Below, one piece after another: positions 47,780-61,150 of a stretch of DNA of 64,000 nt. The notes under the pieces are model-generated. The model did no database searches, was not told the origin of the DNA, and worked only from the letters and a program-made list of their open reading frames with translations. The stretch's first letter is position 1. Every line of letters starts with the position of its first letter. The DNA is from Methylococcales bacterium (lineage in GTDB: Bacteria > Pseudomonadota > Gammaproteobacteria > JABHGC01), in NCBI GenBank assembly GCA_018672285.1, contig JABHGC010000225.1, positions 7,153 to 71,152 of the forward strand, in the 5' to 3' direction. The translations under genes were made by a program, and so were the position numbers.

Positions 47780-50700
47780 ATGCCCATCAAACAAAATGTT
47801 GGCTCCATTGACTCTATCATCCGTAAAGTGCTCGGTATTGGTGCCATATACTATGGTTTTATCTCTCCACAACTCGTTGGAGACCCTTTGTTTGCCAATT
47901 TATTGGGATTTCTTGGTGTCATCGTCATCATCAGCAGTTTATTTCGCTACTGCCCCTTATACGTGTTAGGAGAGTTTAAAAAAATATTCAACGCTAAAAG
48001 CAAAAAAACCGCCAAAGATCCTTCCCTCAGAACCACAAAAAAATATTTTTTTATTACCTTCTCTTTATTAACCGTCACCACCATCATCATTTTTGGCCTA
48101 GTGGCCTATCATAGCGCCGTTGAGATAAGCCAGGAAAGAGAAAATAGTTATACCAATACCCTCTTCAAAACCCATTCTGATTTTTTAGTCAGTAACGCCA
48201 ATGTTGACGATGTCCAATCATTACAAGATGTTGCTGCGAGTTTAAAAGGCTTTTTAGGACAGATTTTTGCCATCGAAAATGGCTATTTAATTCACCCTCT
48301 ATCCATTGGCAGCGGCATGATTATGTCCACTGCAGACATTCAGAGGCTCTCCATTCTCACCAGCAACGCAGGCACCCTCGATTTACCAGAACACCGCAGA
48401 CACTGGCAAAAAATTCCGCTACCCAATAGCCGTTATACCTTATTTGTCACTTACGACATGCCGCTGTATGAAACACAGTTGCTCGATGCATTTAACAGTA
48501 GATTGTTTGTTGCCAGTACCATTTTATTTTATTTTTACGTCTGGGGCACACTCATTGGAACCAGGTATATTTCCAAGAAATTTGACCTGATCAACTCAGC
48601 TCGCATGGAAAGTGAGGCACTGAACACGTTACTGCTTAACTCAACGGCAGAAGCGATTTATGGTGTCGATACCGATGGAAATTGCACTTTCTGTAACCCC
48701 GCGACGTTACAGCTGTTGGGTTATTCGGATGTAGACGACTTGTTAGGTAAAAATGTGCATAATTTAATGCACCATAGTCACCCAGATGGTTCAGAATATC
48801 CCATTGAAGACTGCCCAATGAACCGGGTTTTAAAACAAGGCCTCCCTGTACACGAAGATAATGAGGTTTTTTGGCGCGCCGACAACACCTGCTTCCCAGT
48901 TGAATACTGGGGCCACCCCATTGTACAAAATGACCAAGCACAAGGCATGGTCATGACCTTCTTAGACATTACCAAGCGTAAAGTCGCAGAAGCTGAAAGG
49001 CTAAAACTGTCCAGTGTTGTTGAGCAGTCTAAGGACCTCATTGTATTAACAGACAATCATGCCGTTATCAGCTATACCAATCCTGCATTTAGCGATATTA
49101 CCGGGTTTAGTTATGAAGATGCACTCGGTAAAGAAATTTCAATTCTCAACCAAGCACTGACTGAAAATGATGAACACGAACAAATTTTCGACACCCTAAA
49201 ACAAGGTGATATTTATCAAGACTCGTTTGTTAATTACCGAAAAAATGGTGATGCATATTATTTAGATTTATCTGTATATGGCCTTAAAAATCAACAAGGT
49301 GAGCTTGAATCTATTGTATATACTGGCCGTGATGTCACCGAGAAAATTGACACCGAAGAGACGATTCGCCAATCTGAGAGCGATAAAATAGAAGCTGAAG
49401 CTGCCAATCAATCGAAAAGCATCTTCTTAGCCAATATGAGCCATGAAATTCGCACACCAATGACTGCGATCATTGGCTTTGCCGAATCCTTGTTAGATGA
49501 TGATATTACCGAAATAGAACGAAGAGATGCCGTTAAAACGATTATTCGTGGTGGTCAACACTTAACCAGGATTATCAATGATATTTTAGATCTTTCTAAG
49601 ATAGAAGCTAACCGAGTTGATATTGAATCAATCCCGATAGACCTCTTAGAACTATTGGCTGAAATCAACAAGATTGCCAATATTCAAGTCAACAACAAGC
49701 ACATTGACTTTATTGATGAATACCAATTTCCACTACCAAGAATCATTCACTCAGACCCAACTCGGTTAAAACAAATTTTATTAAATTTAGTCACAAACGC
49801 GGTTAAATTTACCGATAGCGGTCATGTTGAGCTAACCCTGTCACATGACCCGCAAGAGCAATTAATTTTCTTTAAAATAAAAGATACCGGCATTGGGCTT
49901 AGCGACGAACAGCAACGTAAGTTATTCAACCCTTTCTCACAAGCAGAAAGCTCAACAACGAGACGTTACGGTGGCACCGGTTTAGGGCTGCATATTTCCA
50001 AACAACTCTCCGAACGAATGGGCGGCTCAATCACCGTTGAAAGCCAATTAAATGTTGGCAGTACATTTACCTTAAGCATTGCCAGTGGTTTGAAGAGCAC
50101 TCTTGCAGAAGACGAATTAATTACGACCCGCGAACAAGTCATTAAGACGGCGCATGAACATGACCACGTTTATGAGGATGCAACCCACGGTGCCAAGATA
50201 TTAATTTCAGAAGACAGTAAAGTCTCTCAAGCATTATTAAAACGGCTTTTCAAAGACAGCAATATTGAAATTGAAATCGTCGACAATGGAGAGCGAGCGT
50301 TAGAGCGCGCATTCGAGACAGAGTTTGACTTAGTCTTAACAGACATTCATATGCCGATCATGGATGGCTTAGAAGCCACTCAAAAAATGCGCGACAGAGG
50401 GTTTAAAAAACCCATTATTGCCATCACTGCCAACGTCATGAAAAATGACATCACCAATTATTACAGTGCAGGCTGTGATGCCGTTATTTCCAAACCCATC
50501 GAGAAAGACAATTTCTTTACGGTTATCAATAAATATTTAACTGACAAACAATATAAACCGAAGGCTACCACCACGGAGATTCCACAGCTGAGCGGCGAAA
50601 TATTAGTGGCAGAGGACAACCCAGATAATCAACGCCTCATTACGATGGTCATCAATAAAACAGGGGCAAACTTAAGTATCGCTGAGGATGGCTTATCAGC

Positions 50701-51295
50701 CATCGAACATACCTTAAGCAAGGATTACCACATCATTTTAATGGACATCAACATGCCATTAATGAATGGGCTTGAGGCGACTAAGAAGCTACGCAAAGCC
50801 GGTTATACCCTACCCATCTACGCTCTCACAGCTGATACAGATAAAGACAAGGTCACCGCGTTTGAAGAGGCAGGTTATGATGGTTATTTATCCAAGCCTT
50901 TAGACAACAGACAACTCTACAGCGTTCTAGAAAAATATTTACCCTGCAACAGTAAACCTGAAAAATTACCGACATATACCGAAGGGAAATCGGCAGAAAT
51001 GGCTTACGAGGAAGTCGATGAGGAAATTTTGTCGTTGATGATCTTGTTTGCGGAAAGATTACCCCCAATGATTGAACAAATTGACACTGCCATTAAAGAG
51101 CAAGACTGGGAAACAGCAGGCGCCGTCATTCACAATATTAAAGGGACTGCAGGTAGCTTTGGACACCCTAAATTAACACTGTTAGCTGGCGTGCTATCCA
51201 ACATCATCAAGAATGCCGATTATGATGATGCCCCTATTGCTTTTGCCGATGTCGTTGAATACGCCAAAAACCACGTTACGACGACCCCAAGTTAA
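47780..51295 (+). CDS. Hybrid sensor histidine kinase: DUF2892-like membrane N-terminus, PAS domains, HisKA, HATPase_c, two receiver domains and an Hpt domain
   Basis: N-terminus ...LFRYCPLYVLGEF (YgaP/DUF2892-like). H-box ANMSHEIRTPMTAIIGF. Receiver 1 ...DLVLTDIHMPIMDGLEA and receiver 2 ...HIILMDINMPLMNGLEA. Hpt HNIKGTAGSFG. Confidence 0.8.
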   Translation: MPIKQNVGSIDSIIRKVLGIGAIYYGFISPQLVGDPLFANLLGFLGVIVIISSLFRYCPLYVLGEFKKIFNAKSKKTAKDPSLRTTKKYFFITFSLLTVTTIIIFGLVAYHSAVEISQERENSYTNTLFKTHSDFLVSNANVDDVQSLQDVAASLKGFLGQIFAIENGYLIHPLSIGSGMIMSTADIQRLSILTSNAGTLDLPEHRRHWQKIPLPNSRYTLFVTYDMPLYETQLLDAFNSRLFVASTILFYFYVWGTLIGTRYISKKFDLINSARMESEALNTLLLNSTAEAIYGVDTDGNCTFCNPATLQLLGYSDVDDLLGKNVHNLMHHSHPDGSEYPIEDCPMNRVLKQGLPVHEDNEVFWRADNTCFPVEYWGHPIVQNDQAQGMVMTFLDITKRKVAEAERLKLSSVVEQSKDLIVLTDNHAVISYTNPAFSDITGFSYEDALGKEISILNQALTENDEHEQIFDTLKQGDIYQDSFVNYRKNGDAYYLDLSVYGLKNQQGELESIVYTGRDVTEKIDTEETIRQSESDKIEAEAANQSKSIFLANMSHEIRTPMTAIIGFAESLLDDDITEIERRDAVKTIIRGGQHLTRIINDILDLSKIEANRVDIESIPIDLLELLAEINKIANIQVNNKHIDFIDEYQFPLPRIIHSDPTRLKQILLNLVTNAVKFTDSGHVELTLSHDPQEQLIFFKIKDTGIGLSDEQQRKLFNPFSQAESSTTRRYGGTGLGLHISKQLSERMGGSITVESQLNVGSTFTLSIASGLKSTLAEDELITTREQVIKTAHEHDHVYEDATHGAKILISEDSKVSQALLKRLFKDSNIEIEIVDNGERALERAFETEFDLVLTDIHMPIMDGLEATQKMRDRGFKKPIIAITANVMKNDITNYYSAGCDAVISKPIEKDNFFTVINKYLTDKQYKPKATTTEIPQLSGEILVAEDNPDNQRLITMVINKTGANLSIAEDGLSAIEHTLSKDYHIILMDINMPLMNGLEATKKLRKAGYTLPIYALTADTDKDKVTAFEEAGYDGYLSKPLDNRQLYSVLEKYLPCNSKPEKLPTYTEGKSAEMAYEEVDEEILSLMILFAERLPPMIEQIDTAIKEQDWETAGAVIHNIKGTAGSFGHPKLTLLAGVLSNIIKNADYDDAPIAFADVVEYAKNHVTTTPS

Positions 51296-51921
51296 CCAAC
51301 CACATCAAGATGCCGGCGTTTAAATTGAACGCCAAGATTCTGCGCTATGGATTCACAGGCATCAATATCTACGCCCTCTAAACCATCAATTGCGGTTGCG
51401 GTTACATCATCGATATACTCTGGTGCAAGCTTTAAAAATTCGAGCATATCTTGAAAAGACCCCTCTAAACTTGGCAGGCAATGCTGCTGATAAACTTGTT
51501 CATTATGGGCATTCATTGAGACGGATACCGCATCAACCACCTTAGCGAGCTCTGGTAAAATATTGTGTTTGTTCACTCTATTCCCTAGCCCATCCGTATT
51601 CAAACGAACCTTAACCCCTTTAGACTTCACCTCAGCTGCCACGGCCAGCAATACTTTAAGACGGAGTGTTGACTCACCGAAACCACAAAAAACGACTTCA
51701 GAAAATCGGGTAACATCCCCTATTTCGCTCATAATTTCCTGAATTTTGGGCCTATGATCCAGCTCTAAATTGTATTCATGCACGTCCCAGGAGCCGTTGT
51801 GTTTTGGACAAAACTGGCATGACAAAGTACAACGATCAGTAATGTTAAGATAACAACGGTCTTCTATTTGATATGCAATGGTTTGCGACATACTATTCCT
51901 TTTAGCACATGCCACCCTCAT
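51292..51921 (-). CDS. Small radical-SAM protein (CxxxCxxC)
   Basis: NITDRCTLSCQFCPKH (Cx3Cx2C) and a FCGFGESTL glycine-rich motif; 209 aa. Its 3' end overlaps the kinase gene's 3' end by 4 nt, in convergent orientation. Confidence 0.6.
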   Translation of the reverse strand: MRVACAKRNSMSQTIAYQIEDRCYLNITDRCTLSCQFCPKHNGSWDVHEYNLELDHRPKIQEIMSEIGDVTRFSEVVFCGFGESTLRLKVLLAVAAEVKSKGVKVRLNTDGLGNRVNKHNILPELAKVVDAVSVSMNAHNEQVYQQHCLPSLEGSFQDMLEFLKLAPEYIDDVTATAIDGLEGVDIDACESIAQNLGVQFKRRHLDVVG

Positions 51922-52123
51922 TTAAACCCCAGCACAATGACCATGACTTAATGTCAGCAATATAAATGGGTGTACAAATATTTTATGAGTGATGTTAAAA
52001 ACAATTTAGACTTTTGTAACGCAGAAACATTATCCAATGCACTGATACTCATTAACATGACCAAGGTCATAAGACAGAAGGGTTAAGTGGGTTTTACGGT
52101 GCTTCAGTCTCAATAACGAGCAA

Positions 52124-52780
52124 TTAGGCTGTTTTGCAATAATATCCAGACAGCACATCCATAGCCCATCTCACCTTTTGAAACACCTCTATATCTCCCC
52201 CTTTATCTGGATGGTGAATATTCGCTAACGCGCGGTATTGAAGTTTAATGTCGGTAAAACTCACCGGTTCCGACAAGGAGAACACAGACAGTGCTTCTTG
52301 TTTATCATCAGAGGCATGAAATTTTGTCCAAAATTTCCCCAACATGTTGTTAATTTCATCTGTTGACGTTTCAAGGTGACTTAAGTCTAAATAATAAGTC
52401 CGCATCGGGTCTGGCGCCGAAATCGCACCTTGCCCTGATCGATAAGGCAATATGCGTATTGATAGCGGGCCTATCTCCAAGTCACCTTGCTCAGCCAGCC
52501 AAAGTTCATCACGAAATTGATAAAGCACATGAAATAAAACGAAATGAACCGTAAACAGAAAATATTGATCCGTCGAAACGCGCCGATCAGGAAAGGTGCC
52601 TTGCTTTTGCAGCTGATCAATTAAATCAAATTCACTGAGAGCGCCATTAGCCTCCGTTAAAATAGATTCAACAGAGGCCTTCAGTGCCTCAGGTATTGTA
52701 GCCAACCTCATATTCACCATTCTTCGTGACTGTAAAGTCACATATAGACCAGCCTTCTTCCCGTTTGGCATGGTACTCAT
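52124..52780 (-). CDS. DnaJ-related protein with a C-terminal J-domain carrying the HPD motif. The start is uncertain; an internal Met at about 52711 would avoid overlap with the upstream ORF.
   Basis: C-terminal ...DIKLQYRALANIHHPDKGGDIEVFQKVRWAMDVL. Confidence 0.6.
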   Translation of the reverse strand: MSTMPNGKKAGLYVTLQSRRMVNMRLATIPEALKASVESILTEANGALSEFDLIDQLQKQGTFPDRRVSTDQYFLFTVHFVLFHVLYQFRDELWLAEQGDLEIGPLSIRILPYRSGQGAISAPDPMRTYYLDLSHLETSTDEINNMLGKFWTKFHASDDKQEALSVFSLSEPVSFTDIKLQYRALANIHHPDKGGDIEVFQKVRWAMDVLSGYYCKTA

Positions 52781-53006
52781 AAATGTCTAAGAAATGATCC
52801 ATCAATTCAATTTCTTTGTCTTCTGACGCTTGATAACTGGTTGTTTGATCTTCAGGCATAAAGCAGGTAATCAACCAGCTTTGCACGATCTCTTCATCCT
52901 CAAAGCCAACTTCCATGTTGATGTGTGTTTTCAACCAACCTTCTGGCGCTGTATCCGCAACCCAGTAAACTAGCTCTTGGTAAATCACTTCCATTGTTTC
53001 ACTCAT
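52689..53006 (-). CDS. Small acidic hypothetical protein, translationally coupled to the upstream kinase gene
   Basis: 105-aa ORF whose ATG overlaps the stop codon of the Ser/Thr kinase gene by 1 nt (TAATG). Confidence 0.45.
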   Translation of the reverse strand: MSETMEVIYQELVYWVADTAPEGWLKTHINMEVGFEDEEIVQSWLITCFMPEDQTTSYQASEDKEIELMDHFLDIYEYHAKREEGWSICDFTVTKNGEYEVGYNT

Positions 53007-55174
53007 TAGATATTCAATCCTTGTAAATCTGCTTGAAGTTCTTGTATTCCTTGGTATCGATCTTGAGGCTTTTTAGCCATTGCCCGCTGCACAATCAAAT
53101 CAATTTCCATGGGCATTTCAGGATATTTTTCACATATTTTAGGCACTGGGTCTTTAAGGTGAGACTGCAGTAATTCCCTTAAATCAATCGACTTAAAGGG
53201 GGTCGTTCCTGCAAAAATCCGATAAAACACAGCCCCCAACTGATAAATATCTGTTCGCTCATCAATTCCTTGGCGCATAATTTGTTCTGGCGCCATATAG
53301 TAAGGTGTACCAATAATTTTCTTGGTTTCTTGCTCATTATCAACTTGTAACGCCAAACCAAAATCCATCACTTTTAAGATGCCTTGGGATGAAATCATCA
53401 TATTCCTAGGGTTAATATCTCGATGAACGATCCCTTGCTCATGTGCAGAAGCAATGGCTGCAGACATCTGTCTGGCTAAAATCACTCCCAAACGAATGTT
53501 ATCAATTCGCCCACCGGAGCGCTGCAACAAGGTGTGCAAGTCATACCCATGTATATATTCCATAGAAATATAAATTTGGTTATTCACGACGCCATAGTCG
53601 TATGTTCTTAACACATTCCTTGCCGTAATCATTCTGGCCAGCTTAATTTCATGCTTAAGCAACGCTTGCTGATTATCATCAACTTGAAACAATACTTTCA
53701 AAGCGACGGTTTCATCTAGACCGGTGTCATGTGCCAAATACACCATTCCCATTCCGCCCGCACCAAGCTCTTTTATAATATTGAAGCGACCCTCAGCAAA
53801 GGGTTGCCCAATCGTGACTTGGTCTGGCTCTACAGCACTTGCTTTTGCAGACAATGGCTGTGATAAATCCTGGGTGACAAAATGACTAGAATCTTCAGAC
53901 TCCACATCGATAACCAAACTACGGTTTAAGCTATCATCACCACTGTAGTTTGTAATTTCAGTGGCAAATTCTTTCGATAAATTTCTTGAGTACTCATCCT
54001 CAAGCAGGCCCTCCGAGATTTTAGCCAGATAATCTTGCAGATCCTCATTATCACGTAATTTTTCACCCAGTAAATAGATTGAATCTGTTAAAACACAGAT
54101 TTCATCTTTACAGGATGTAGATAACTCCGATTCTGCGATTGAATCAATTTGCTTAAAATCCCCCTCTTTGATTCTTGAGGTGAGCTCAATAAGGTGGTTC
54201 ACAGGTTTGGTAATTTGACCTGAGAAAATCCATGCAAAAATACTCGCTAAAATAAGACTAATGAGGCCAATAATAAGAATTTTGTCTTTAATTGTATCAA
54301 ACGGTTTCATAAAGTCGGATTTAGACTTCATCGCCAACACATACCCAAGCGTACTACCACCACTGCGCTCGAGTGGGTAAACAGCAATATGGTATTGTAA
54401 GCCATTTAACTGTAACCGGCTCATACTGCCTTCTTTCAAATTCTGTTTGATACGTGTAAAAATATCACCTTCTTTAGAAATTAATGCTTCAGCAAGGCCA
54501 ATATCGGTCATAAATTGTAGTTTAGGTTTTACCGTACCATCCACTTTTGCCATTGCATAAATTGCGATATCACTGGTGGTCAGTTTTTTAATTCTTGCGG
54601 CCATATCTGAGGAAACCTGAAATGCTACTGCAATAGCACCTCTGATAATATCCCCTGCATTAACGTCTAAATCATAAACAGGTAAAGAGACAATTTGAAA
54701 TATCTTACCTCGAGAAACCATGAAGCCTCTCGCTTCCTTTCCCGTTAATGCCGTGTCTATTAAATGATGACTTCCTTTAATTCTTGAACCGATCAATGAT
54801 TTTTTATCTGTTCTAGACAAAACATAGCCATCTGCATTGACAAACAATAAAATATCAAGCTCTGATGACTCTTTGAGCTCATTAGATAAATCCAACAAAG
54901 AGTCTTTATCTTGCTCAATGACTAAAGGCGTCACTCTTTGGTCCTCAGCAATGGTTTTAGCAATGTTGGATATGCGCTCAAACCGGTTCAACCAGCTTTC
55001 TTCTAGTACCGCCTCAGTTTGTGTTAATGCAAGGTTAATCTCTGAATTCGCGACATCTTCAGCTTGCTCTCCAACTAGCAAAATCAATGCAGCCAATAAA
55101 AACCCAAAACTCAGAGATAGAATTAAAAAAAGCTTTCTCTTGATCGAGACTTGATTAAAAATCTTCAAAGTCAT
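53006..55174 (-). CDS. Transmembrane receptor Ser/Thr protein kinase: periplasmic sensor domain, HAMP, Hanks-type kinase
   Basis: TM1 LFLILSLSFGFLLAALILLV. A periplasmic region of about 250 aa. TM2 ILIIGLISLILASIFAWIFSG. A HAMP-like linker. Kinase motifs GAGGMGMVY, VALKVL, HRDINPRN, MDFGLA and MAPEQ. Confidence 0.8.
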   Translation of the reverse strand: MTLKIFNQVSIKRKLFLILSLSFGFLLAALILLVGEQAEDVANSEINLALTQTEAVLEESWLNRFERISNIAKTIAEDQRVTPLVIEQDKDSLLDLSNELKESSELDILLFVNADGYVLSRTDKKSLIGSRIKGSHHLIDTALTGKEARGFMVSRGKIFQIVSLPVYDLDVNAGDIIRGAIAVAFQVSSDMAARIKKLTTSDIAIYAMAKVDGTVKPKLQFMTDIGLAEALISKEGDIFTRIKQNLKEGSMSRLQLNGLQYHIAVYPLERSGGSTLGYVLAMKSKSDFMKPFDTIKDKILIIGLISLILASIFAWIFSGQITKPVNHLIELTSRIKEGDFKQIDSIAESELSTSCKDEICVLTDSIYLLGEKLRDNEDLQDYLAKISEGLLEDEYSRNLSKEFATEITNYSGDDSLNRSLVIDVESEDSSHFVTQDLSQPLSAKASAVEPDQVTIGQPFAEGRFNIIKELGAGGMGMVYLAHDTGLDETVALKVLFQVDDNQQALLKHEIKLARMITARNVLRTYDYGVVNNQIYISMEYIHGYDLHTLLQRSGGRIDNIRLGVILARQMSAAIASAHEQGIVHRDINPRNMMISSQGILKVMDFGLALQVDNEQETKKIIGTPYYMAPEQIMRQGIDERTDIYQLGAVFYRIFAGTTPFKSIDLRELLQSHLKDPVPKICEKYPEMPMEIDLIVQRAMAKKPQDRYQGIQELQADLQGLNI

Positions 55175-56036
55175 CTTCTTTCTTCACTGCTGGCTGGTTG
55201 TTTTTTTCGACATCAGAACTATCGTCAAATTCTTCGTCCTCGTCGTCTTCTTCTTCATCTTCTTCGTCATCAAAATCGTCAATCATGTCATAGTCATCTT
55301 GCTCATCATCTTCATCAATTTGGTTCTGTATTTTTGACCAATCTTCAGACTTTAAGCTTTTTTGTGGTGCAGCAGGATAAACACCACTTTTTTTCGGCCG
55401 AGTCCGCTTTGTCCATTGAGTACCATCAACCGAAAGGTCAATGACCAAGTTCGAATTTTTGATCAATACTGTTCTCGTGGTCTGACCTCGCACATGCCAC
55501 GCAGTTAAAGTGTACCGGCCAGGTGCTAAATCACTAATATGATAAAAGCCGTCTTTATTGGTGATCATGGAGCGTTCTTTGGCCATAACCCACACATAGG
55601 TAAACATTTTCTTGTGCACGTTACAGTAGATTTTAACCAAACCGGGATTCTTGAAAGCAACCTCGGGGCTCATGCCACGACGAAAACTGCCAAGATCAAA
55701 ACGATTACCTTCAGATGAACTAAAAACATTGTGCTTGATACGATCTTGATTCGGGAAATAGACAGAGTCACCAACCTGTACCACTAGATGTGACGGGGTA
55801 TAGGTCTTATTACGCATTTTAATTTTAAAGGTTTTTGCCGCACGCGCATTCAAATCGATGCTGCTATCTAATGGCTTTAAAGTCACGATAACGTGCTTAG
55901 GGCTAGTCGGTACTTGCCCCTTTCCGAGTACTGTCACCTTACCCTGGACAGAACCTGTCGTAACGGGCTCAGCAGCGGTCGCATGCCCTGTTATAAAGAA
56001 CAAGAGAAAGCAAAAAAACAGCAAGGAATAGTTCAT
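55155..56036 (-). CDS. Secreted cupredoxin-like (type-1 copper) protein with a poly-acidic C-terminal tail
   Basis: Signal peptide MNYSLLFFCFLLFFITGHATA. HNVF and YCNVHKKMF motifs (His...Cys-x2-His-x2-Met) typical of plastocyanin/azurin-type sites. Asp/Glu-rich tail DEDDEQDDYDMIDDFDDEEDEEEDDEDEEFDD. Overlaps the kinase start by 20 nt. Confidence 0.5.
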   Translation of the reverse strand: MNYSLLFFCFLLFFITGHATAAEPVTTGSVQGKVTVLGKGQVPTSPKHVIVTLKPLDSSIDLNARAAKTFKIKMRNKTYTPSHLVVQVGDSVYFPNQDRIKHNVFSSSEGNRFDLGSFRRGMSPEVAFKNPGLVKIYCNVHKKMFTYVWVMAKERSMITNKDGFYHISDLAPGRYTLTAWHVRGQTTRTVLIKNSNLVIDLSVDGTQWTKRTRPKKSGVYPAAPQKSLKSEDWSKIQNQIDEDDEQDDYDMIDDFDDEEDEEEDDEDEEFDDSSDVEKNNQPAVKKEDDFEDF

Positions 56037-56199
56037 AGTTTAATTTCTGTATACAGTGATGCTAATTGTAACAAAAATTCACAGGAACTGTTTTGACGTT
56101 TCCAACATTTTTAAAGAAAACAGCAACATTTTCAGCCTATTTAGCACTAGCAAACGCCCAATGCTGCCATTTAATACAACTACCCGCTAAAGCAACGCC

Positions 56200-56541
56200 T
56201 TAGCGCTGACGCAAAAAAGATTTAGCTTGTTCGTGTCCAGACTCAGCAGCTTTGATAAACCACTTATGAGCTTCACCCTCATCCCTATGTAATCTGGGTC
56301 CACCGAGGTAAAATAAGCCAAGTTCATACCAAACATTTGAACTGGCCTGCTCAACCTTAAGCTCTGTCTCTTCAATACTCTTAGCTAATCTACTGGCCTC
56401 TACGTGGCCAAATTTCGCCGCTTTGCGAAACCATTTTTTGGCTTCTATTAGATCGTGGGCGGTACGCTGCCCTTGATAAAACATCTGACCTAAACGATAC
56501 CATTTCTCTAAATTAACCGATTGCTGATGCATTATTTCCAT
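56200..56541 (-). CDS. Small Sel1-repeat protein
   Basis: Two Sel1 units (WYRLGQMFYQGQRTAHDLIEAKKWFRKAAKFGH; WYELGLFYLGGPRLHRDEGEAHKWFIKAAESGH). Confidence 0.6.
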   Translation of the reverse strand: MEIMHQQSVNLEKWYRLGQMFYQGQRTAHDLIEAKKWFRKAAKFGHVEASRLAKSIEETELKVEQASSNVWYELGLFYLGGPRLHRDEGEAHKWFIKAAESGHEQAKSFLRQR

Positions 56542-56665
56542 TGCAACACTCCATTTGAACTTGAAGAACCGTGCGTTTTCCCTAACTACTTAGTAGAATC
56601 TTACCACATCACACCTTGGAATATACTGGTTTTTTCTAACTATTTAACGCTCAACTCAGTCGCCA

Positions 56666-57457
56666 CTAACATCGGCTTAAATTTGGCCCAGGGTTTTCGG
56701 TTAAACCCAGCGGCTCTCTTAGCAGTAAACGTCGCTTAAATAACTCAAACACCATGAGATAACTTAAGTCTGTTAAGGCACTGTCGTAGCGATGGCCTTC
56801 ATCTCTAGTGAAGGCATGCTGAGCATTCATTTCGTGCCAATTAAAAAGTCGCTCATGCTTGACTAAAGCATCATAAATTTTCTTACGCCCATCTTGCGGA
56901 ACATGAGGGTCTTGCCTTCCCCATACCATCAACAACTCAGCGTTGATATCAGGCATTCTTTGTAGTGAATTATCGTTTTTGTTTTGCCCTAATGTGCTGG
57001 TATGAATATCCGTAGGATATAAACAGACACACGCACTAACACTGGGGTTCATCGCAGCTCTAAAGCTTAAGTGTCCACCTAAACAAATTCCCATCGTTCC
57101 AAGTGCGCCATTGCAATCATCTAACCCTAACAGGTGTGCCAATACTGCTTTAGCATCATCATCAAATGCTTGAATGGGTTTATCTATTTTGTATTGATTG
57201 CCTTTGTCTGTACCTTCGGCGTCATACGCTAATGCAGTTCCTAATGGCTCAAACTCGTGGTAGACCTCTGGTACAGCCACAATGTAGCCCTCGCAAGCTA
57301 TCTTTCGAGCAGCACGAGCAATTGGCCCCGTCATTTGATAGATTTCAGAAAACAACACCACGCCAGGGTAAACCCCTTTTGCAACCGGCTTAAAAAGGTG
57401 TGTCCGCATTAAGCCCGTTGGTGTATTTAAATCCGTATAGTCTTCTGAAATAATCAT
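56666..57457 (-). CDS. Dienelactone hydrolase family protein
   Basis: 263 aa with DLH-family features (...GVVLFSEIYQMTGPIARAARKIACEGYIVAVPEVYHE...GTMGICLGGHLSFRAA...). Confidence 0.65.
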   Translation of the reverse strand: MIISEDYTDLNTPTGLMRTHLFKPVAKGVYPGVVLFSEIYQMTGPIARAARKIACEGYIVAVPEVYHEFEPLGTALAYDAEGTDKGNQYKIDKPIQAFDDDAKAVLAHLLGLDDCNGALGTMGICLGGHLSFRAAMNPSVSACVCLYPTDIHTSTLGQNKNDNSLQRMPDINAELLMVWGRQDPHVPQDGRKKIYDALVKHERLFNWHEMNAQHAFTRDEGHRYDSALTDLSYLMVFELFKRRLLLREPLGLTENPGPNLSRC

Positions 57458-57669
57458 CTACATTCCCTTTGTTATTGGTTTTATTCAACTTAATTCGAGT
57501 GTAATGCTCACACACGGCAAGGTCAATGCGTGATCTGAGCCATAAAATAGAAAGAGATAAATTTCACTTGCCTTTATCAGTATTTGGTTATATTATTGAG
57601 CTAGAGATAATGATAACCCAATAAGGAAATTTAATGAGATAACTTTAACGACAACGTAAGGAGACGATC

Positions 57670-57810: not shown

Positions 57811-58968
57811 CTAGATCTTGTTCACATCAGGATCTAGCGGTAAGGTAAAATAAAACTGACTACCAACCCCAACCGTACTTTCCACACCCACTTCCCCACC
57901 ATGTGCATCAATAATTTTTTTGACGATGGCCAAACCTAAACCCGTACTTGACTCACCACCGGTGGACTGTGTTCCCGCTGTTTGAAATGAATCAAATAAT
58001 GTTTTTTGAGCAGGTTCATCAATCCCAGGTCCCTCATCAACAACGGCCACTTTAGCAAAGCCATTAGCATGACTAATTGCCACTTTAATTTTCGCATTTT
58101 TGGGGCTGAACTTAATGCTATTACTAATTAGGTTATCAATCACCTGACCGACTCGCAAACGGTCAAAAACAAAGGGGGCATTCGATTGCCCCTCCATTAA
58201 TAGAGAGATATGCTTTTGATCGGCTCTGAAGCGATGGTGTTTGATTTTTTCTAACACCAGCATTTCTAAATCTGCTTCATTTTTAGATAGTTTTAAAGTC
58301 CCGTTTTCAATGGCTGACATGTCAACAAGGTCATTGATTAACAGTAATGCTTCATTGGCCACATTAAAAATTTTATTGTGAATCCCCTCCAACTCATCAG
58401 CTTCATACTGAGCATCCAGCAATAGCTCCATATAACCTTTAATCACACCTACGGGGTTGCGTAAGTCATGAGCGACCATGCCTAACAGCTTGTTTTTATC
58501 CTCATTGAGCCTAGCTTGTTCCTGTAACGCATACCTTAGCTGTAAATGGGTTTGAATCCTAATTCTAACTTCACGCTCATTAAAGGGCTTAGTCATATAA
58601 TCTTTGGCGCCAGCATCAAACCCTTTTATGACATCATCGATATCAGACATTGCGGTTAAAAATATAATGGCAACGTCTTTAAATTCAGGTTTTTGCTTCA
58701 GTATTCGACAAACCTCAAAGCCATCAATACCGGGCATCATGATGTCTAATAAGATTAAATCAGGCTTGAAATGCTCTGCAACTTTTATCGCTCGCTCACC
58801 ACTTTGTGCCAGCGCTAGCTGATACCCATCAGGCCTCAGCGCCTCTGTTAACACTCTGATGTTTTCAGCAACATCATCGACCAGTAAAATTTTAAGACCC
58901 GCTGGATTATAAGGTAGATTAGACATCAGATATTTTACCAATGATGTCAATAATCCCATCCATATCAT
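57811..58968 (-). CDS. Response-regulator receiver fused to a histidine kinase (REC-HisKA-HATPase_c). The start is probably the internal Met at about 58926.
   Basis: REC ...ILLVDDVAENIRVL...LILLDIMMPGIDGFEV. H-box MVAHDLRNPVGVIKGY. G-box ...GLGLAIVKKII. Confidence 0.75.
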   Translation of the reverse strand: MIWMGLLTSLVKYLMSNLPYNPAGLKILLVDDVAENIRVLTEALRPDGYQLALAQSGERAIKVAEHFKPDLILLDIMMPGIDGFEVCRILKQKPEFKDVAIIFLTAMSDIDDVIKGFDAGAKDYMTKPFNEREVRIRIQTHLQLRYALQEQARLNEDKNKLLGMVAHDLRNPVGVIKGYMELLLDAQYEADELEGIHNKIFNVANEALLLINDLVDMSAIENGTLKLSKNEADLEMLVLEKIKHHRFRADQKHISLLMEGQSNAPFVFDRLRVGQVIDNLISNSIKFSPKNAKIKVAISHANGFAKVAVVDEGPGIDEPAQKTLFDSFQTAGTQSTGGESSTGLGLAIVKKIIDAHGGEVGVESTVGVGSQFYFTLPLDPDVNKI

Positions 58969-61150
58969 AAGATTTAGCCATGGCAGCCAAATGATCGGCT
59001 AAACCCTGACCACCGTCAAGTTCTGATATTTGCTTAATCACAACATCTAAATCAGTAATCATACAGAATTCTGCCGCCTCATTGATGGCCATCTTAATCG
59101 CAGGGTCTAAGACAATGGTTGACGTGTCAAAACCATTGATACTCGTGACCGGCACGTCACCCAGCAAATCGTCTTCATATTCATACTCAATTTCAAGTAA
59201 CTTTTGCATACTACTGAAGACTTGCTGTGATTTAAACGGCTTGGTAATAATACCATTACACGCTGAGTCGTAAAATTTTTCTCTGTCATGATCAAACGCT
59301 GTGGCAGAGACAATGACCATTTTTATTTTATCACCATAAATATCTCTAATTTGATTCATGGCCTCAATGCCATCCATTTTAGGCATTCGGTAATCCATAA
59401 AAATAATATCGGGTGGTGATTTTTTTGCTTTTTCAATCGCAACCAACCCATTTTCAGCCTCAGTGACGTTCACCCCAATTTTACGTAAAATCAAACTTAA
59501 TAGATCTCTATTCACCTCAACATCATCAACAACTAAGGCATTCACAGAGAATTCGGGCAATAGCTTAACGACCACCTTAAGGTCGTCTTCTTGAATATTA
59601 ATGACCTTATTTTCTGCTTTCGGGAGAGTTATTTCAAAATAAAATTTTGAACCGACACTCAGTCGCGATTCAATTTGTAAACTCCCACCCATCATATCAA
59701 CTTGCTTACTAGAAATGGCTAGCCCTAACCCTGTCCCGCCTTTTTTCACACCTTGATCGCTCTGTTGAAAAGCTTTAAATATTGAATCTTGATGCGACTC
59801 AGCAATGCCCTCACCGGTATCACAGACTTCAAATCGATACCGATCTGTTTTTGCTTGGCGAAAGATATTCAAGGTAATGGCTCCTGAATCCGTAAATTTA
59901 ACGGCGTTACCTAGCAGGTTAATCAACACCTGCCGCACTTTACCTTCGTCACCATACACGTGAATATCATCTACCGAAAAATTATCATTCACAGACCAAG
60001 CCAGCTTTTTCTCTTGGCAGCGCAAGCGGAACATCTCATCCACGTCATGCGTTAACGCTTTCAAATCAAAATCGGCAGAATTCAGCTTTTGTTTACCCGC
60101 TTCAATCTTAGAGATATCTAAAATATCATTGATTAACTGTAATAAATGCTGACCACTACGCTCAATTGTATTGATCGATTCTCGCTGCTCTTTTTCTAGT
60201 GCATGGTCACGTTTTAATATCTGTGCATAACCCAGAATGGCATTCATCGGTGTACGAATCTCATGACTCATATTGGCCAAAAACACTGATTTTGACTGGT
60301 TAGCCATTTCCGCATCTTGTTTGGCAATTAAAAGTGCCTGCTCTGCACTTTTTCTTTCAGAAATTTCATTCCGCATTTGAGAGTTGAGCGCCATCAGCTG
60401 GGATTGGCTTTCTTCTAATTTATCCATTTTAGCGCGTGCTAATTCCTCTGCATCCGTGACAGCGGCTTTTAACTTTTCTTGTTGCTTAGCAACATTATCA
60501 ACCATCTCATTAAAAAACTGAGCCAAATCTCCAAACTCATCCGGACGCGACGCATCAAAGCGGTAGTCTAAGTGCCCATTAGCCACTTGCCTCGTACCAT
60601 CAACTAATGCTTCAAAAGGCTTAGTCACCACCTTATTCATGGTCCAACTTAAAACCAACCCAAATACCAAGCAGACGGCCACCATTGACCATAACCAGCG
60701 TTTTTGTTGCTGCCGAAAGGATTTTCCAACAGGAGGATGGCACAGCTCAATCAAGACAAATTGTATATCCTGCTCTATTCCTGAAGTTGTCACCCGCCGG
60801 GAAACACACACATCTTTTTTGCCTAAATTCCCCCAACTTTGTTTATTTCCTTCATAAATCAGGTGAACAGACGTAAATTGCTTTGTGGTTAATTGCTGCA
60901 AGAATTCAAAAGCAATTGGCGCATCAACCGCTTGCTGTTCTCTGGAAAACTCAGACCATTGATAGGCTATTCGATCAGCATCACTTTCAACCCCGGTTAA
61001 TAACTCTTTCTCACCGTCCCACAACAAAACAGCAGAAATCACCAAACCAATAATCGCGATCCCCCACAGCACCACTGAGGTAATTTTTATCGGAAGCCTA
61101 GCATTCCAGTTCGTTGTCCAGTCGGAGGTTAAAGACTTGTCAATTTCCAT
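58919..61150 (-). CDS. Membrane hybrid sensor histidine kinase (TM, HAMP, coiled coil, HisKA, HATPase_c, receiver)
   Basis: H-box ANMSHEIRTPMNAILGYAQIL. Receiver ALVVDDVEVNRDLL...DIIFMDYRMPKMDGIEA. Confidence 0.8.
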   Translation of the reverse strand: MEIDKSLTSDWTTNWNARLPIKITSVVLWGIAIIGLVISAVLLWDGEKELLTGVESDADRIAYQWSEFSREQQAVDAPIAFEFLQQLTTKQFTSVHLIYEGNKQSWGNLGKKDVCVSRRVTTSGIEQDIQFVLIELCHPPVGKSFRQQQKRWLWSMVAVCLVFGLVLSWTMNKVVTKPFEALVDGTRQVANGHLDYRFDASRPDEFGDLAQFFNEMVDNVAKQQEKLKAAVTDAEELARAKMDKLEESQSQLMALNSQMRNEISERKSAEQALLIAKQDAEMANQSKSVFLANMSHEIRTPMNAILGYAQILKRDHALEKEQRESINTIERSGQHLLQLINDILDISKIEAGKQKLNSADFDLKALTHDVDEMFRLRCQEKKLAWSVNDNFSVDDIHVYGDEGKVRQVLINLLGNAVKFTDSGAITLNIFRQAKTDRYRFEVCDTGEGIAESHQDSIFKAFQQSDQGVKKGGTGLGLAISSKQVDMMGGSLQIESRLSVGSKFYFEITLPKAENKVINIQEDDLKVVVKLLPEFSVNALVVDDVEVNRDLLSLILRKIGVNVTEAENGLVAIEKAKKSPPDIIFMDYRMPKMDGIEAMNQIRDIYGDKIKMVIVSATAFDHDREKFYDSACNGIITKPFKSQQVFSSMQKLLEIEYEYEDDLLGDVPVTSINGFDTSTIVLDPAIKMAINEAAEFCMITDLDVVIKQISELDGGQGLADHLAAMAKSYDMDGIIDIIGKISDV

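Follow-up and report, generated by a model that had tools for sequence, protein, structure and literature searches.

A secreted cupredoxin/transthyretin-like protein and a dCache_3 receptor Ser/Thr kinase form the conserved core of a four-gene locus in a Methylococcales bacterium

RESULTS

Four genes are arranged head to tail at the locus

The DNA considered here is a stretch of 64,000 nucleotides (nt) from a Methylococcales bacterium (assembly GCA_018672285.1, contig JABHGC010000225.1), to which we refer, at its full length, as the window. Our subject is a run of four open reading frames (ORFs) that lie head to tail on its minus strand (52124-56036) and, in particular, the pair formed by the first two of them. 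Gene 1 (55155-56036; 293 amino acids [aa]) codes for a secreted cupredoxin/transthyretin-like protein with a signal peptide and a disordered tail. Gene 2 (53006-55174; 722 aa) encodes a receptor Ser/Thr kinase in which a first transmembrane helix (TM1), a dCache_3 domain, a second transmembrane helix (TM2), a HAMP domain, a linker and a Hanks-type kinase domain follow each other. Gene 3 (52689-53006; 105 aa) specifies a small cytoplasmic protein, a local accessory of the pair, and gene 4 (52124-52711) a DNAJ_related protein with a C-terminal J domain.

An earlier inspection of this DNA, made from its letters and referred to here as the sequence-only reading, had taken all four genes for one translationally coupled signaling system and had drawn attention to the tightness of their junctions. 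These junctions can indeed be read in the sequence. The stop codon of gene 1 and the start codon of the kinase gene overlap by 20 nt (55155-55174), as is evident from direct reading: the kinase ATG at 55174 falls within the final seven codons of gene 1 (ATGACTTTGAAGATTTTTAA), and no alternative in-frame start would retain the N-terminal transmembrane helix of the kinase. The kinase stop codon and the gene 3 start codon are merged into a TAATG in which the A at 53006 is shared. Gene 3 ends at 52689, so that an ATG at 52711 gives gene 4 a probable overlap of 23 nt with it; we regard this ATG as the most likely start since the homologs of the gene 4 product are 190-195 aa long. The longest ORF (52124-52780; 218 aa) would bring about a 92-nt overlap with gene 3. 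The same set of four genes is present in three Joint Genome Institute (JGI) samples of the organism, an uncultured marine bacterium (3300072015, 3300024258, 3300024260).

Directly upstream of the run, 163 nt from gene 1, lies a gene for a Sel1-repeat protein of 113 aa (56200-56541; minus strand), and downstream, 202 nt from gene 4, a TatD-linked radical SAM gene (51292-51921). A scan of positions 51000-57500 for promoters and terminators returned fewer sites than did shuffled sequence, none of them informative; hence, the operon boundaries are deduced solely from the spacing of the genes. When the window was scanned for Rfam families and tRNA genes, none were found.

Gene 1 encodes a cupredoxin domain nested in a transthyretin-like domain

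The gene 1 product begins with a hydrophobic stretch (residues 3-23) that is followed by A-T-A and then A-E. This N-terminus, MNYSLLFFCFLLFFITGHATA continued by AEP, is predicted to be a signal peptide (residues 1 to about 22; 55968-56036) with a putative cleavage site after A-T-A. Signal peptides or lipoboxes are also present in the homologs of gene 1.

When the whole protein is compared with Pfam, it stays below the cut-offs of the Copper-bind (19.7 bits; cut-off 21.2) and Cupredoxin_1 (23.1 bits; cut-off 27) models; its match to CarboxypepD_reg is sub-threshold as well, its scores against TIGR02656/02657 fall far under the NCBIfam cut-offs, and neither Pfam nor NCBIfam holds a model that covers the two-domain protein. 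The order of the strands in an AlphaFold model prompted us to test for a nested arrangement. Residues 59-152, taken out of the protein, score 23.6 bits with Copper-bind and thus exceed its cut-off of 21.2, and residues 25-58 joined to residues 153-210 yield one contiguous match to CarboxypepD_reg (PF13620; 34.1 bits versus a cut-off of 32.3; profile positions 2-67). Because the excision restores a contiguous Pfam match above the cut-off, we conclude that the cupredoxin (type-1 copper) domain (residues about 59-151; 55584-55862) is inserted into a CarboxypepD_reg/transthyretin-like domain, and that both together make up a nested two-domain unit spanning residues 25-205 (55422-55964). The AlphaFold model, computed from a seven-sequence alignment, has predicted local distance difference test (pLDDT) values of about 90 for residues of about 30-205 and is disordered from residue 211 onwards. 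Fold comparison recovered both the Greek-key beta-sandwich of cupredoxins and the CarboxypepD_reg/transthyretin-like fold in it; among solved structures, none was found that joins a cupredoxin and a transthyretin-like domain in the manner of gene 1.

The copper ligands were placed by HMMER alignments to solved proteins. The first of them, His102, belongs to the motif H102-N-V-F (55722-55733), which aligns to the PHNV motif of plastocyanin (1bxu), and the other three belong to the loop C138-N-V-H141-K-K-M144 (55605-55625), whose counterparts are YCEPH in plastocyanin and CTLHPWM in the cupredoxin domain of 9cck. His102, Cys138, His141 and Met144 match the type-1 sites of plastocyanin, amicyanin and a Nitrosopumilus cupredoxin domain, and CxxHxxM is also the spacing found in amicyanin. 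Among 87 cupredoxin loci (L001-L087; 80 from the genome scan described below and seven from metagenomes, some of them duplicate contigs), HN[VA]F occurs in every one and YCN[IV]HxxM in 83; 145 of the 148 best metagenome-wide representatives carry CxxHxxM. The axial Met is missing only in a homolog from Eisenbacteria (YCELHPRE; L005 is the same contig as L077, and L006 a near-identical assembly), which is also devoid of a kinase. Judged by its ligands and its fold, the gene 1 product would therefore bind copper. The sequence-only reading had named it a cupredoxin and had made the superposition of its Cys/His/Met ligands on a type-1 copper site the point to be checked. The ligands do align with the type-1 site of solved cupredoxins; the plain label has to be amended to that of a cupredoxin nested in a transthyretin-like domain.

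The tail of the gene 1 product ends in a conserved aromatic residue

Behind the nested domains follows a tail whose conserved core consists of K-x-G-x-x-Y-P and a final aromatic residue, with a short variable linker between them. In the window, the first of these elements is K215-K-S-G-V-Y-P221 (55374-55394), aligned to the family consensus N-K-[YF]-G-x-x-Y-P, and a loose version of it ([KR]xGxxx[PS]) is found in about 60 of the 87 loci. The second element is the last residue of the C-terminal DDFEDF (55158-55175), a Phe. This terminal position is occupied by Tyr in 84 and by Phe in one of the 87 loci, and one of these two residues ends the protein in 119 of the 148 metagenome-wide representatives. 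That the terminal Tyr might be a by-product of the overlapping kinase start was considered and rejected: it is kept when the two genes are separated by gaps of 0-928 nt and in stand-alone genes. The terminal aromatic residue is hence a feature of the protein, kept regardless of gene overlap. A role as an outer-membrane beta-signal was likewise rejected; charged or polar residues precede it, and no strand is predicted for them.

In the window protein, the linker between KKSGVYP (residues 215-221) and the DDFEDF end harbors a poly-Asp/Glu insertion (residues 241-287; 55176-55316) that is disordered in the AlphaFold model; 33 of the last 53 residues of the protein are Asp or Glu. Such an acidic tail was encountered in the window and in the metagenome homologs P0002 and P0003, and in none of the 148 family representatives. 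It looks like a lineage-specific expansion of the linker. Because of this restricted occurrence, the acidic tail, which the sequence-only reading had described as metal-binding, is not the defining metal-binding element of the system.

Gene 2 encodes a receptor-type Hanks kinase with a dCache_3 sensor domain

The transmembrane segments of the kinase comprise residues 13-38 and 294-322. Between them lies the periplasmic dCache_3 domain (residues 50-285; 54320-55027; PF14827, E 3.4e-10, 40.4 bits, cut-off 25.7), of which Arg64, Asp95, Arg121 and Asp123 each reach 94% conservation or more in an alignment of 65 kinases. The HAMP domain (residues about 323-372; 54059-54208) is matched weakly by PF00672 (13.8 bits, under the cut-off of 25). 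Its Pro324, Gly338, Asp357, Glu358 and Leu362 are conserved in the same alignment, and the orthologs of the kinase match HAMP strongly (E 1e-13 to 1e-15; 49-55 bits). The Hanks-type kinase domain (residues 465-708; 53051-53782; PF00069 Pkinase, E 1e-46) possesses a G-loop (GAGGMGMV) and the VALK, HRD, DFG and APE motifs.

The catalytic loop of the window kinase, HRDINPRN (residues 584-591; 53402-53425), is atypical: the Lys of the HRDxKxxN motif is replaced by Asn, and an Arg stands at position D+4, as in the HRDxxxRN motif of tyrosine kinases. The activation segment is Ser/Thr-like (GTPYYMAPE), and all 65 partner kinases found elsewhere possess HRD[ILV]KPxN. Judging by its loop, the window enzyme may possibly be altered in activity or specificity. 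A scan of metagenomes with the whole kinase produced only two distant matches to the kinase domain and no further close relatives.

The cupredoxin and kinase genes are paired in several phyla

The gene 1 family is large. An exhaustive profile-free search returned 8,237 cluster representatives at E<1e-3 and 2,935 at E<1e-10, and a scan in which each GTDB species was represented by a single genome (185,579 in all) identified 378 relatives of gene 1. We examined the best 80 of these 378 with 10-kb flanks, in which neighbors were sought by tblastn with the window proteins. All 80 stem from metagenome-assembled genomes (MAGs), with no cultured isolate among them, and the top identity to the window protein is 44%, so that the organism of the window lacks a close representative in this set. 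They belong mostly to the Acidobacteriota and Gemmatimonadota; six are from Pseudomonadota, three from Verrucomicrobia, and one each from Planctomycetota and Eisenbacteria.

A partner kinase was called when the sensor region, the catalytic domain or both matched the window kinase. By this measure, a kinase gene is present directly downstream of the cupredoxin gene and on the same strand in 64 of the 66 loci that have at least 3.2 kb of downstream sequence; it is missing from L064 (Planctomycetota) and L077 (Eisenbacteria). The paired loci come from Acidobacteriota, Gemmatimonadota, Verrucomicrobia and Pseudomonadota, and their gene 1 products are 30-44% identical to that of the window. Of five representative partner kinases, four contain dCache_3, HAMP and Pkinase domains according to Pfam; these originate from Pseudomonadota, Verrucomicrobia and two classes of Acidobacteriota. 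In the fifth, from Gemmatimonadales (L037), Pfam finds HAMP and Pkinase only. In most lineages the stop codon of the first and the start codon of the second gene overlap, by 1, 14, 17 or 23 nt (20 nt in the window), and we conclude from the recurrence of such overlaps that translational coupling itself is conserved. The same cupredoxin-kinase pair is found in the metagenome homologs P0003, P0004 and P0007; P0003 is 58% identical to the window protein, has a 20-nt overlap, and is accompanied by DLH and HisKA neighbors as in the window. Co-occurrence in other genomes, the check that the sequence-only reading had set for its operon, thus bears out the cupredoxin-kinase part of the proposed system, with a mostly overlapping stop and start; the other two genes did not follow, as described below.

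We clustered the ORFs within 5 kb of the pairs, an analysis made noisy by spurious ORFs from high-GC MAGs, and found no conserved phosphatase (PP2C included), FHA protein, regulator, protease or redox enzyme among them. The recurrent neighbor clusters (a porin, an N-terminal-nucleophile hydrolase-like protein and an aminotransferase) reflect clade-specific synteny and are not signaling partners.

Some clades display peculiarities of their own. One subclass of acidobacterial kinases has a Guanylate_cyc domain inserted between the HAMP and kinase domains (L054, 10590-13229), and similar kinases of about 875 aa are encoded in L013, L015, L022, L028, L047, L056 and L070. The cupredoxin partners of this subclass have basic tails (such as KRGKY and KREKY) and not acidic ones. 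In 24 acidobacterial loci, a gene for a Porin_5-type outer-membrane protein that ends in Phe is situated 3' of the kinase gene and in the same orientation, in most cases no more than about 60 nt away (for example L021, 12826-13938, and L059, 12778-13857); in this porin clade the operon may consist of three genes. The Planctomycetota homolog (L064, 5472-6470, from a MAG) has no kinase within 5.5 kb and carries an N-terminal extension of about 140 residues with the sequence CTACH. This CxxCH heme-c motif suggests a role in electron transfer for members of the family without a kinase.

Genes 3 and 4 are local additions to the pair

No homolog of gene 3 or gene 4 was detected by tblastn within 8 kb of the cupredoxin gene in any of the 80 genome loci. 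Gene 3 has just two matches in 5.8 billion proteins. It is nonetheless a real gene under purifying selection: relative to its 70%-identical homolog in L094, the divergence at synonymous sites is saturated (pS 0.78), and that at nonsynonymous sites is low (pN 0.16). Three independent borderline matches, each over the full length of the gene 3 product, were obtained: with PF04634 (E 7e-4; 20.2 bits, cut-off 21.7), with TIGR01741 (E 1e-3; 18.7 bits, cut-off 82) and with EsaG in the Protein Data Bank (E 0.015). Imm36 is equivalent to DUF600 (PMC3482391). Gene 3 may possibly encode a remote version of the DUF600/Imm36 (YezG/EsaG-like) fold, the full-length matches being the likeness to that family; it differs in that the protein is about 50 residues shorter and in that all scores lie under the cut-offs. 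The AlphaFold model of gene 3, built from a two-sequence alignment, has a mean pLDDT of 53 and is unusable, and no toxin gene is present near gene 3 in the window neighborhood.

Gene 4 belongs to the Pfam family DNAJ_related (PF12339; E 5e-32, 111 bits, cut-off 25). Its score with the DnaJ model (26.1 bits) is slightly under the cut-off of 27.8; the protein contains YYLD at residues 129-132 and HPD at residues 190-192 (52205-52213). The nearest relative is L094, a contig of 922 nt (Logan SRR13131471) in which the C-terminus of the kinase is 84% and the small protein 70% identical to that of the window. In this contig (625-730), gene 4 is cut to its first 18 codons before a stop, and 80 nt separate the small ORF from the TatD-linked radical SAM gene that comes next. 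The DnaJ-related gene has here undergone a clean natural deletion that spared the genes for the kinase and the small protein. Five other homologs of gene 4, 31-45% identical, all reside in differing neighborhoods: beside a CbiMQO transporter and an ECF sigma factor (L088), at the end of a RIO1-type kinase gene that it overlaps by 8 nt (L090, 1542-3048; Logan SRR11093388), beside a peptidase M1 gene and a 65-aa ORF (L092), beside a radical SAM gene of the Radical_SAM_N family (L095), and near GreA and small ORFs (L100). That in L090 a PF12339 gene is directly preceded by a kinase gene for a second, unrelated time could be due to chance or to a recurring link. Full-text literature searches brought up nothing on PF12339.

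Since genes 3 and 4 are absent from the loci of the relatives, and since gene 4 is deleted in L094, the conserved core of the locus consists of two genes. Gene 3, which is restricted to this lineage, has been added to the kinase and possibly encodes a regulator that binds it; gene 4 is a dispensable neighbor. The small protein and the J-domain protein, which had been put forward as cytoplasmic partners of the signaling unit, are accordingly not retained as such.

DISCUSSION

A model for the function of the cupredoxin-kinase pair

An exported protein with a conserved set of copper ligands, a kinase whose sensor domain resides in the same compartment, conserved coupling of the two genes and the lack of any other conserved partner lead us to regard the cupredoxin protein as a dedicated periplasmic partner and co-sensor of the kinase that reports copper or redox state. 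On balance we lean toward this partnership model, taken as a whole; its specific signal, copper or redox, is the less certain part of it. The cupredoxin protein would dock on the periplasmic dCache_3 domain, and a change in the oxidation state or the copper occupancy of the metal center would alter the complex. This change would then be relayed via TM2 and the HAMP domain to the activity of the kinase and lead to the phosphorylation of cytoplasmic targets, with the stop/start overlap fixing the proportion of the cupredoxin protein to the kinase. The lineage represented by the window would have added to this scheme the acidic expansion of the tail, a DUF600-like protein coupled to the kinase, and the dispensable DnaJ-related neighbor. 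What the sequences show is the structure of the genes, the identity of the domains, and the conservation of the ligands and of the pair across phyla; copper binding, the contact between the two proteins, the nature of the signal and the output are what we infer here.

Several observations weigh against the co-sensor model. Conserved adjacency and coupling fit equally well with a common function of the two proteins that involves no contact between them. Domains of the dCache type normally bind small molecules, and the kinase may therefore sense a ligand of its own. There are stand-alone homologs of gene 1 without a kinase, in Planctomycetota (L064) and Eisenbacteria (L077), and the adjacency was seen among the best 80 of the 378 genome relatives, so that the wider family of about 2,935 representatives may be paired less often. 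The HRDINPRN loop renders the activity and the specificity of the window kinase uncertain. Finally, the whole gene 1 protein lies under the cupredoxin cut-offs of Pfam and NCBIfam.

A bolder version of the co-sensor model, which we put forward as a speculation with little probability behind it, concerns the tail. The terminal aromatic residue with its free carboxylate might serve as a tethered ligand for the dCache_3 pocket of the kinase, and oxidation, reduction or metallation of the type-1 copper center might decide between exposing this flexible tail and withholding it. If this were true, a redox or copper signal would be converted into the binding of an amino-acid-like ligand, a mode of recognition already used by Cache domains. 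The tethered tail would then connect a protein with a redox cofactor to a Cache receptor in a new way, and it would be the first defined input for the widespread Hanks receptor kinases of Acidobacteriota, Gemmatimonadota, Verrucomicrobia and Pseudomonadota.

Other explanations of the locus

The same tail can be read in another way. Aromatic C-termini are bound by PDZ domains of the DegS/DegP type, and the gene 1 product might resemble CpxP of CpxP-CpxA or ExoR of ExoR-ExoS, that is, a negative regulator or stress reporter that keeps the sensor domain of the kinase off until a PDZ-type protease reads its aromatic tail and removes it; the signal would then be envelope or folding stress, with copper being secondary or structural. 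The periplasmic location of the protein and a terminal Tyr or Phe that follows a variable disordered linker in 85 of 87 loci, independently of gene overlap, would suit such a regulator, yet the copper ligands are almost invariant across phyla, which is hard to explain if the metal is irrelevant, and no protease gene is conserved beside the pair. We deem this explanation unlikely. We think no better of the possibility that there is no physical partnership at all, and that gene 1 codes for an electron-transfer or metal-handling protein in the same process as an operon kinase that senses a small molecule via dCache_3. Cupredoxins are typically electron carriers, and the N-terminal CxxCH extension of L064 suggests electron transfer. 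The wider gene 1 family is large and has some members of other architecture, and Cache domains are typically binders of small ligands, as can be gathered from the 2016 Cache census. However, no conserved redox enzyme that could act as donor or acceptor lies beside the pair, pairing and coupling that persist at 30-44% identity over four phyla would be unusual for a co-regulated metabolic gene, and a tail conserved in this way is not known to serve any function in electron carriers.

That all four genes constitute one system, with a cupredoxin sensor, a kinase, a small adaptor, and a J-protein that as partner or substrate links the kinase to DnaK, is suggested by the tight junctions in the window (20 nt, TAATG and about 23 nt) and by the recurrence of the same four genes in the three JGI samples of the same organism. 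A link between a kinase and a J-protein is not absurd, given that the DnaJ-related gene of L090 overlaps a RIO1-type kinase gene. Nevertheless, homologs of the small and DnaJ-related genes are found within 8 kb in none of the 80 loci, the DnaJ-related gene is reduced to 18 codons in L094, and its five other homologs stand in unrelated contexts, all of which makes the four-gene system improbable in our judgment. Next to no credence can be given to an anti-phage defense kinase like PD-T4-6, Mad6 of MADS, or PglW, a candidate that we rejected in view of the absence of any full-length model match or defense context. The kinase domain does match PD-T4-6 of PADLOC (E 5e-71) and MAD6 of NCBIfam (E 9e-42), but these matches span the generic catalytic domain only (residues about 460-718), and the scores with the NCBIfam models MAD6 (143 bits, cut-off 460) and PglW (90 bits, cut-off 990) remain well below what is demanded. 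The other three proteins match no PADLOC model. Moreover, the architecture is that of a receptor that faces the periplasm and has a secreted partner conserved with it, and the surroundings of the loci have the appearance of housekeeping regions in MAGs from several phyla.

Relation to known signaling systems

The partnership that we favor for the cupredoxin protein and the kinase would be a form of partner-assisted transmembrane receptor signaling. LuxP-LuxQ and TorT-TorS each consist of a periplasmic partner protein and a transmembrane sensor kinase. The pair described here is like them in that a separately encoded periplasmic protein is the proposed signal-recognizing subunit, that the receptor is of the PAS/Cache type, and that the genes are adjacent; the partner is exported and encoded beside the receptor (64 of 66 loci). 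It is unlike them in that the partner is cupredoxin/transthyretin-like and does not have the fold of a solute-binding protein, that the output is a Hanks Ser/Thr kinase and not a histidine kinase, and that the interaction is deduced here from the genes. Receptor-type Hanks kinases with extracellular sensor domains are exemplified by PknB with its PASTA domains and by PknD with its beta-propeller. The window kinase shares with these the membrane anchor and the extracytoplasmic sensor, and it differs from them by its dCache_3 sensor, its two transmembrane helices and its HAMP relay, a wiring that resembles two-component systems. CusS and CopS are histidine kinases that bind Cu(I) in their own periplasmic domain and have no cupredoxin partner. 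Sensing of envelope copper by a transmembrane kinase, as proposed for the window kinase, would be common to all of them, whereas a Cys/His/His/Met type-1 site is a redox center rather than a typical Cu(I) sensor site. In comparison with amicyanin, plastocyanin and pseudoazurin, the cupredoxin domain of gene 1 is distinguished by being nested in a transthyretin-like domain, by the conserved tail that follows, and by being encoded together with a receptor kinase and not with a dehydrogenase or a photosystem.

Among published systems, the closest is the Cache_heme-HAMP (CHH) receptor of Pseudomonas azotoformans, which signals through an associated Ser/Thr kinase (bioRxiv 10.64898/2026.05.25.727664). 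In our model, the pair would share with it a periplasmic sensor with a redox cofactor and a path from HAMP to Ser/Thr phosphorylation of the PknB-like kind; both systems are encoded by operon-linked genes. In the CHH system, however, it is the Cache domain that carries the heme c, and the HAMP domain is bound by a soluble kinase made as a protein of its own, whereas in the window Cache, HAMP and kinase domains are united in one polypeptide and the candidate type-1 copper belongs to a second protein, which is secreted. Of the 883 dCache_3 proteins counted in the 2016 Cache census, a single one was a Ser/Thr kinase, and the census listed no solved dCache_3 structure. Full-text literature searches retrieved nothing on a pair of a cupredoxin and a Hanks kinase. 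While each part comes from a known family, the combination thus appears to be undescribed.

The input signal is known for very few bacterial Hanks-type receptor kinases, and the cupredoxin-kinase pair is a compact and genetically defined candidate for one. With it, an input that can be put to the test becomes available for a widespread class of Hanks receptor kinases, which we encountered here only in genomes of uncultured organisms; most of the carriers of the pair that we found are uncultured soil and marine bacteria from at least four phyla. Should the co-sensor model hold true, a blue-copper center would act as a signaling input rather than as an electron carrier, Ser/Thr phosphosignaling would be tied to the copper or redox state of the envelope, and the cupredoxin protein would be the first defined partner for a dCache_3 domain. 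In annotation, membership in the system should not be passed on to the DnaJ-related and small genes, nor should the acidic tail be used as its hallmark.

Other features of the window

The surroundings of the locus are rich in signaling genes. A PAS-containing hybrid histidine kinase of 1,171 aa with two receiver domains is encoded at 47780-51295 on the plus strand; on the minus strand, the gene for a receiver-HisKA protein (57811-58968) overlaps that for a HAMP-containing hybrid kinase of 743 aa (58919-61150) by 50 nt. Half of the window (1-32929; minus strand) is taken up by a single reading frame without interruption, at least 10,976 codons long, that runs off the start of the window. Three sampled segments of this giant ORF contain AMP-binding, PP-binding and Condensation domains, with a starter of the acyl-AMP-ligase type coming first. 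Its product is a nonribosomal peptide synthetase that probably makes a lipopeptide.

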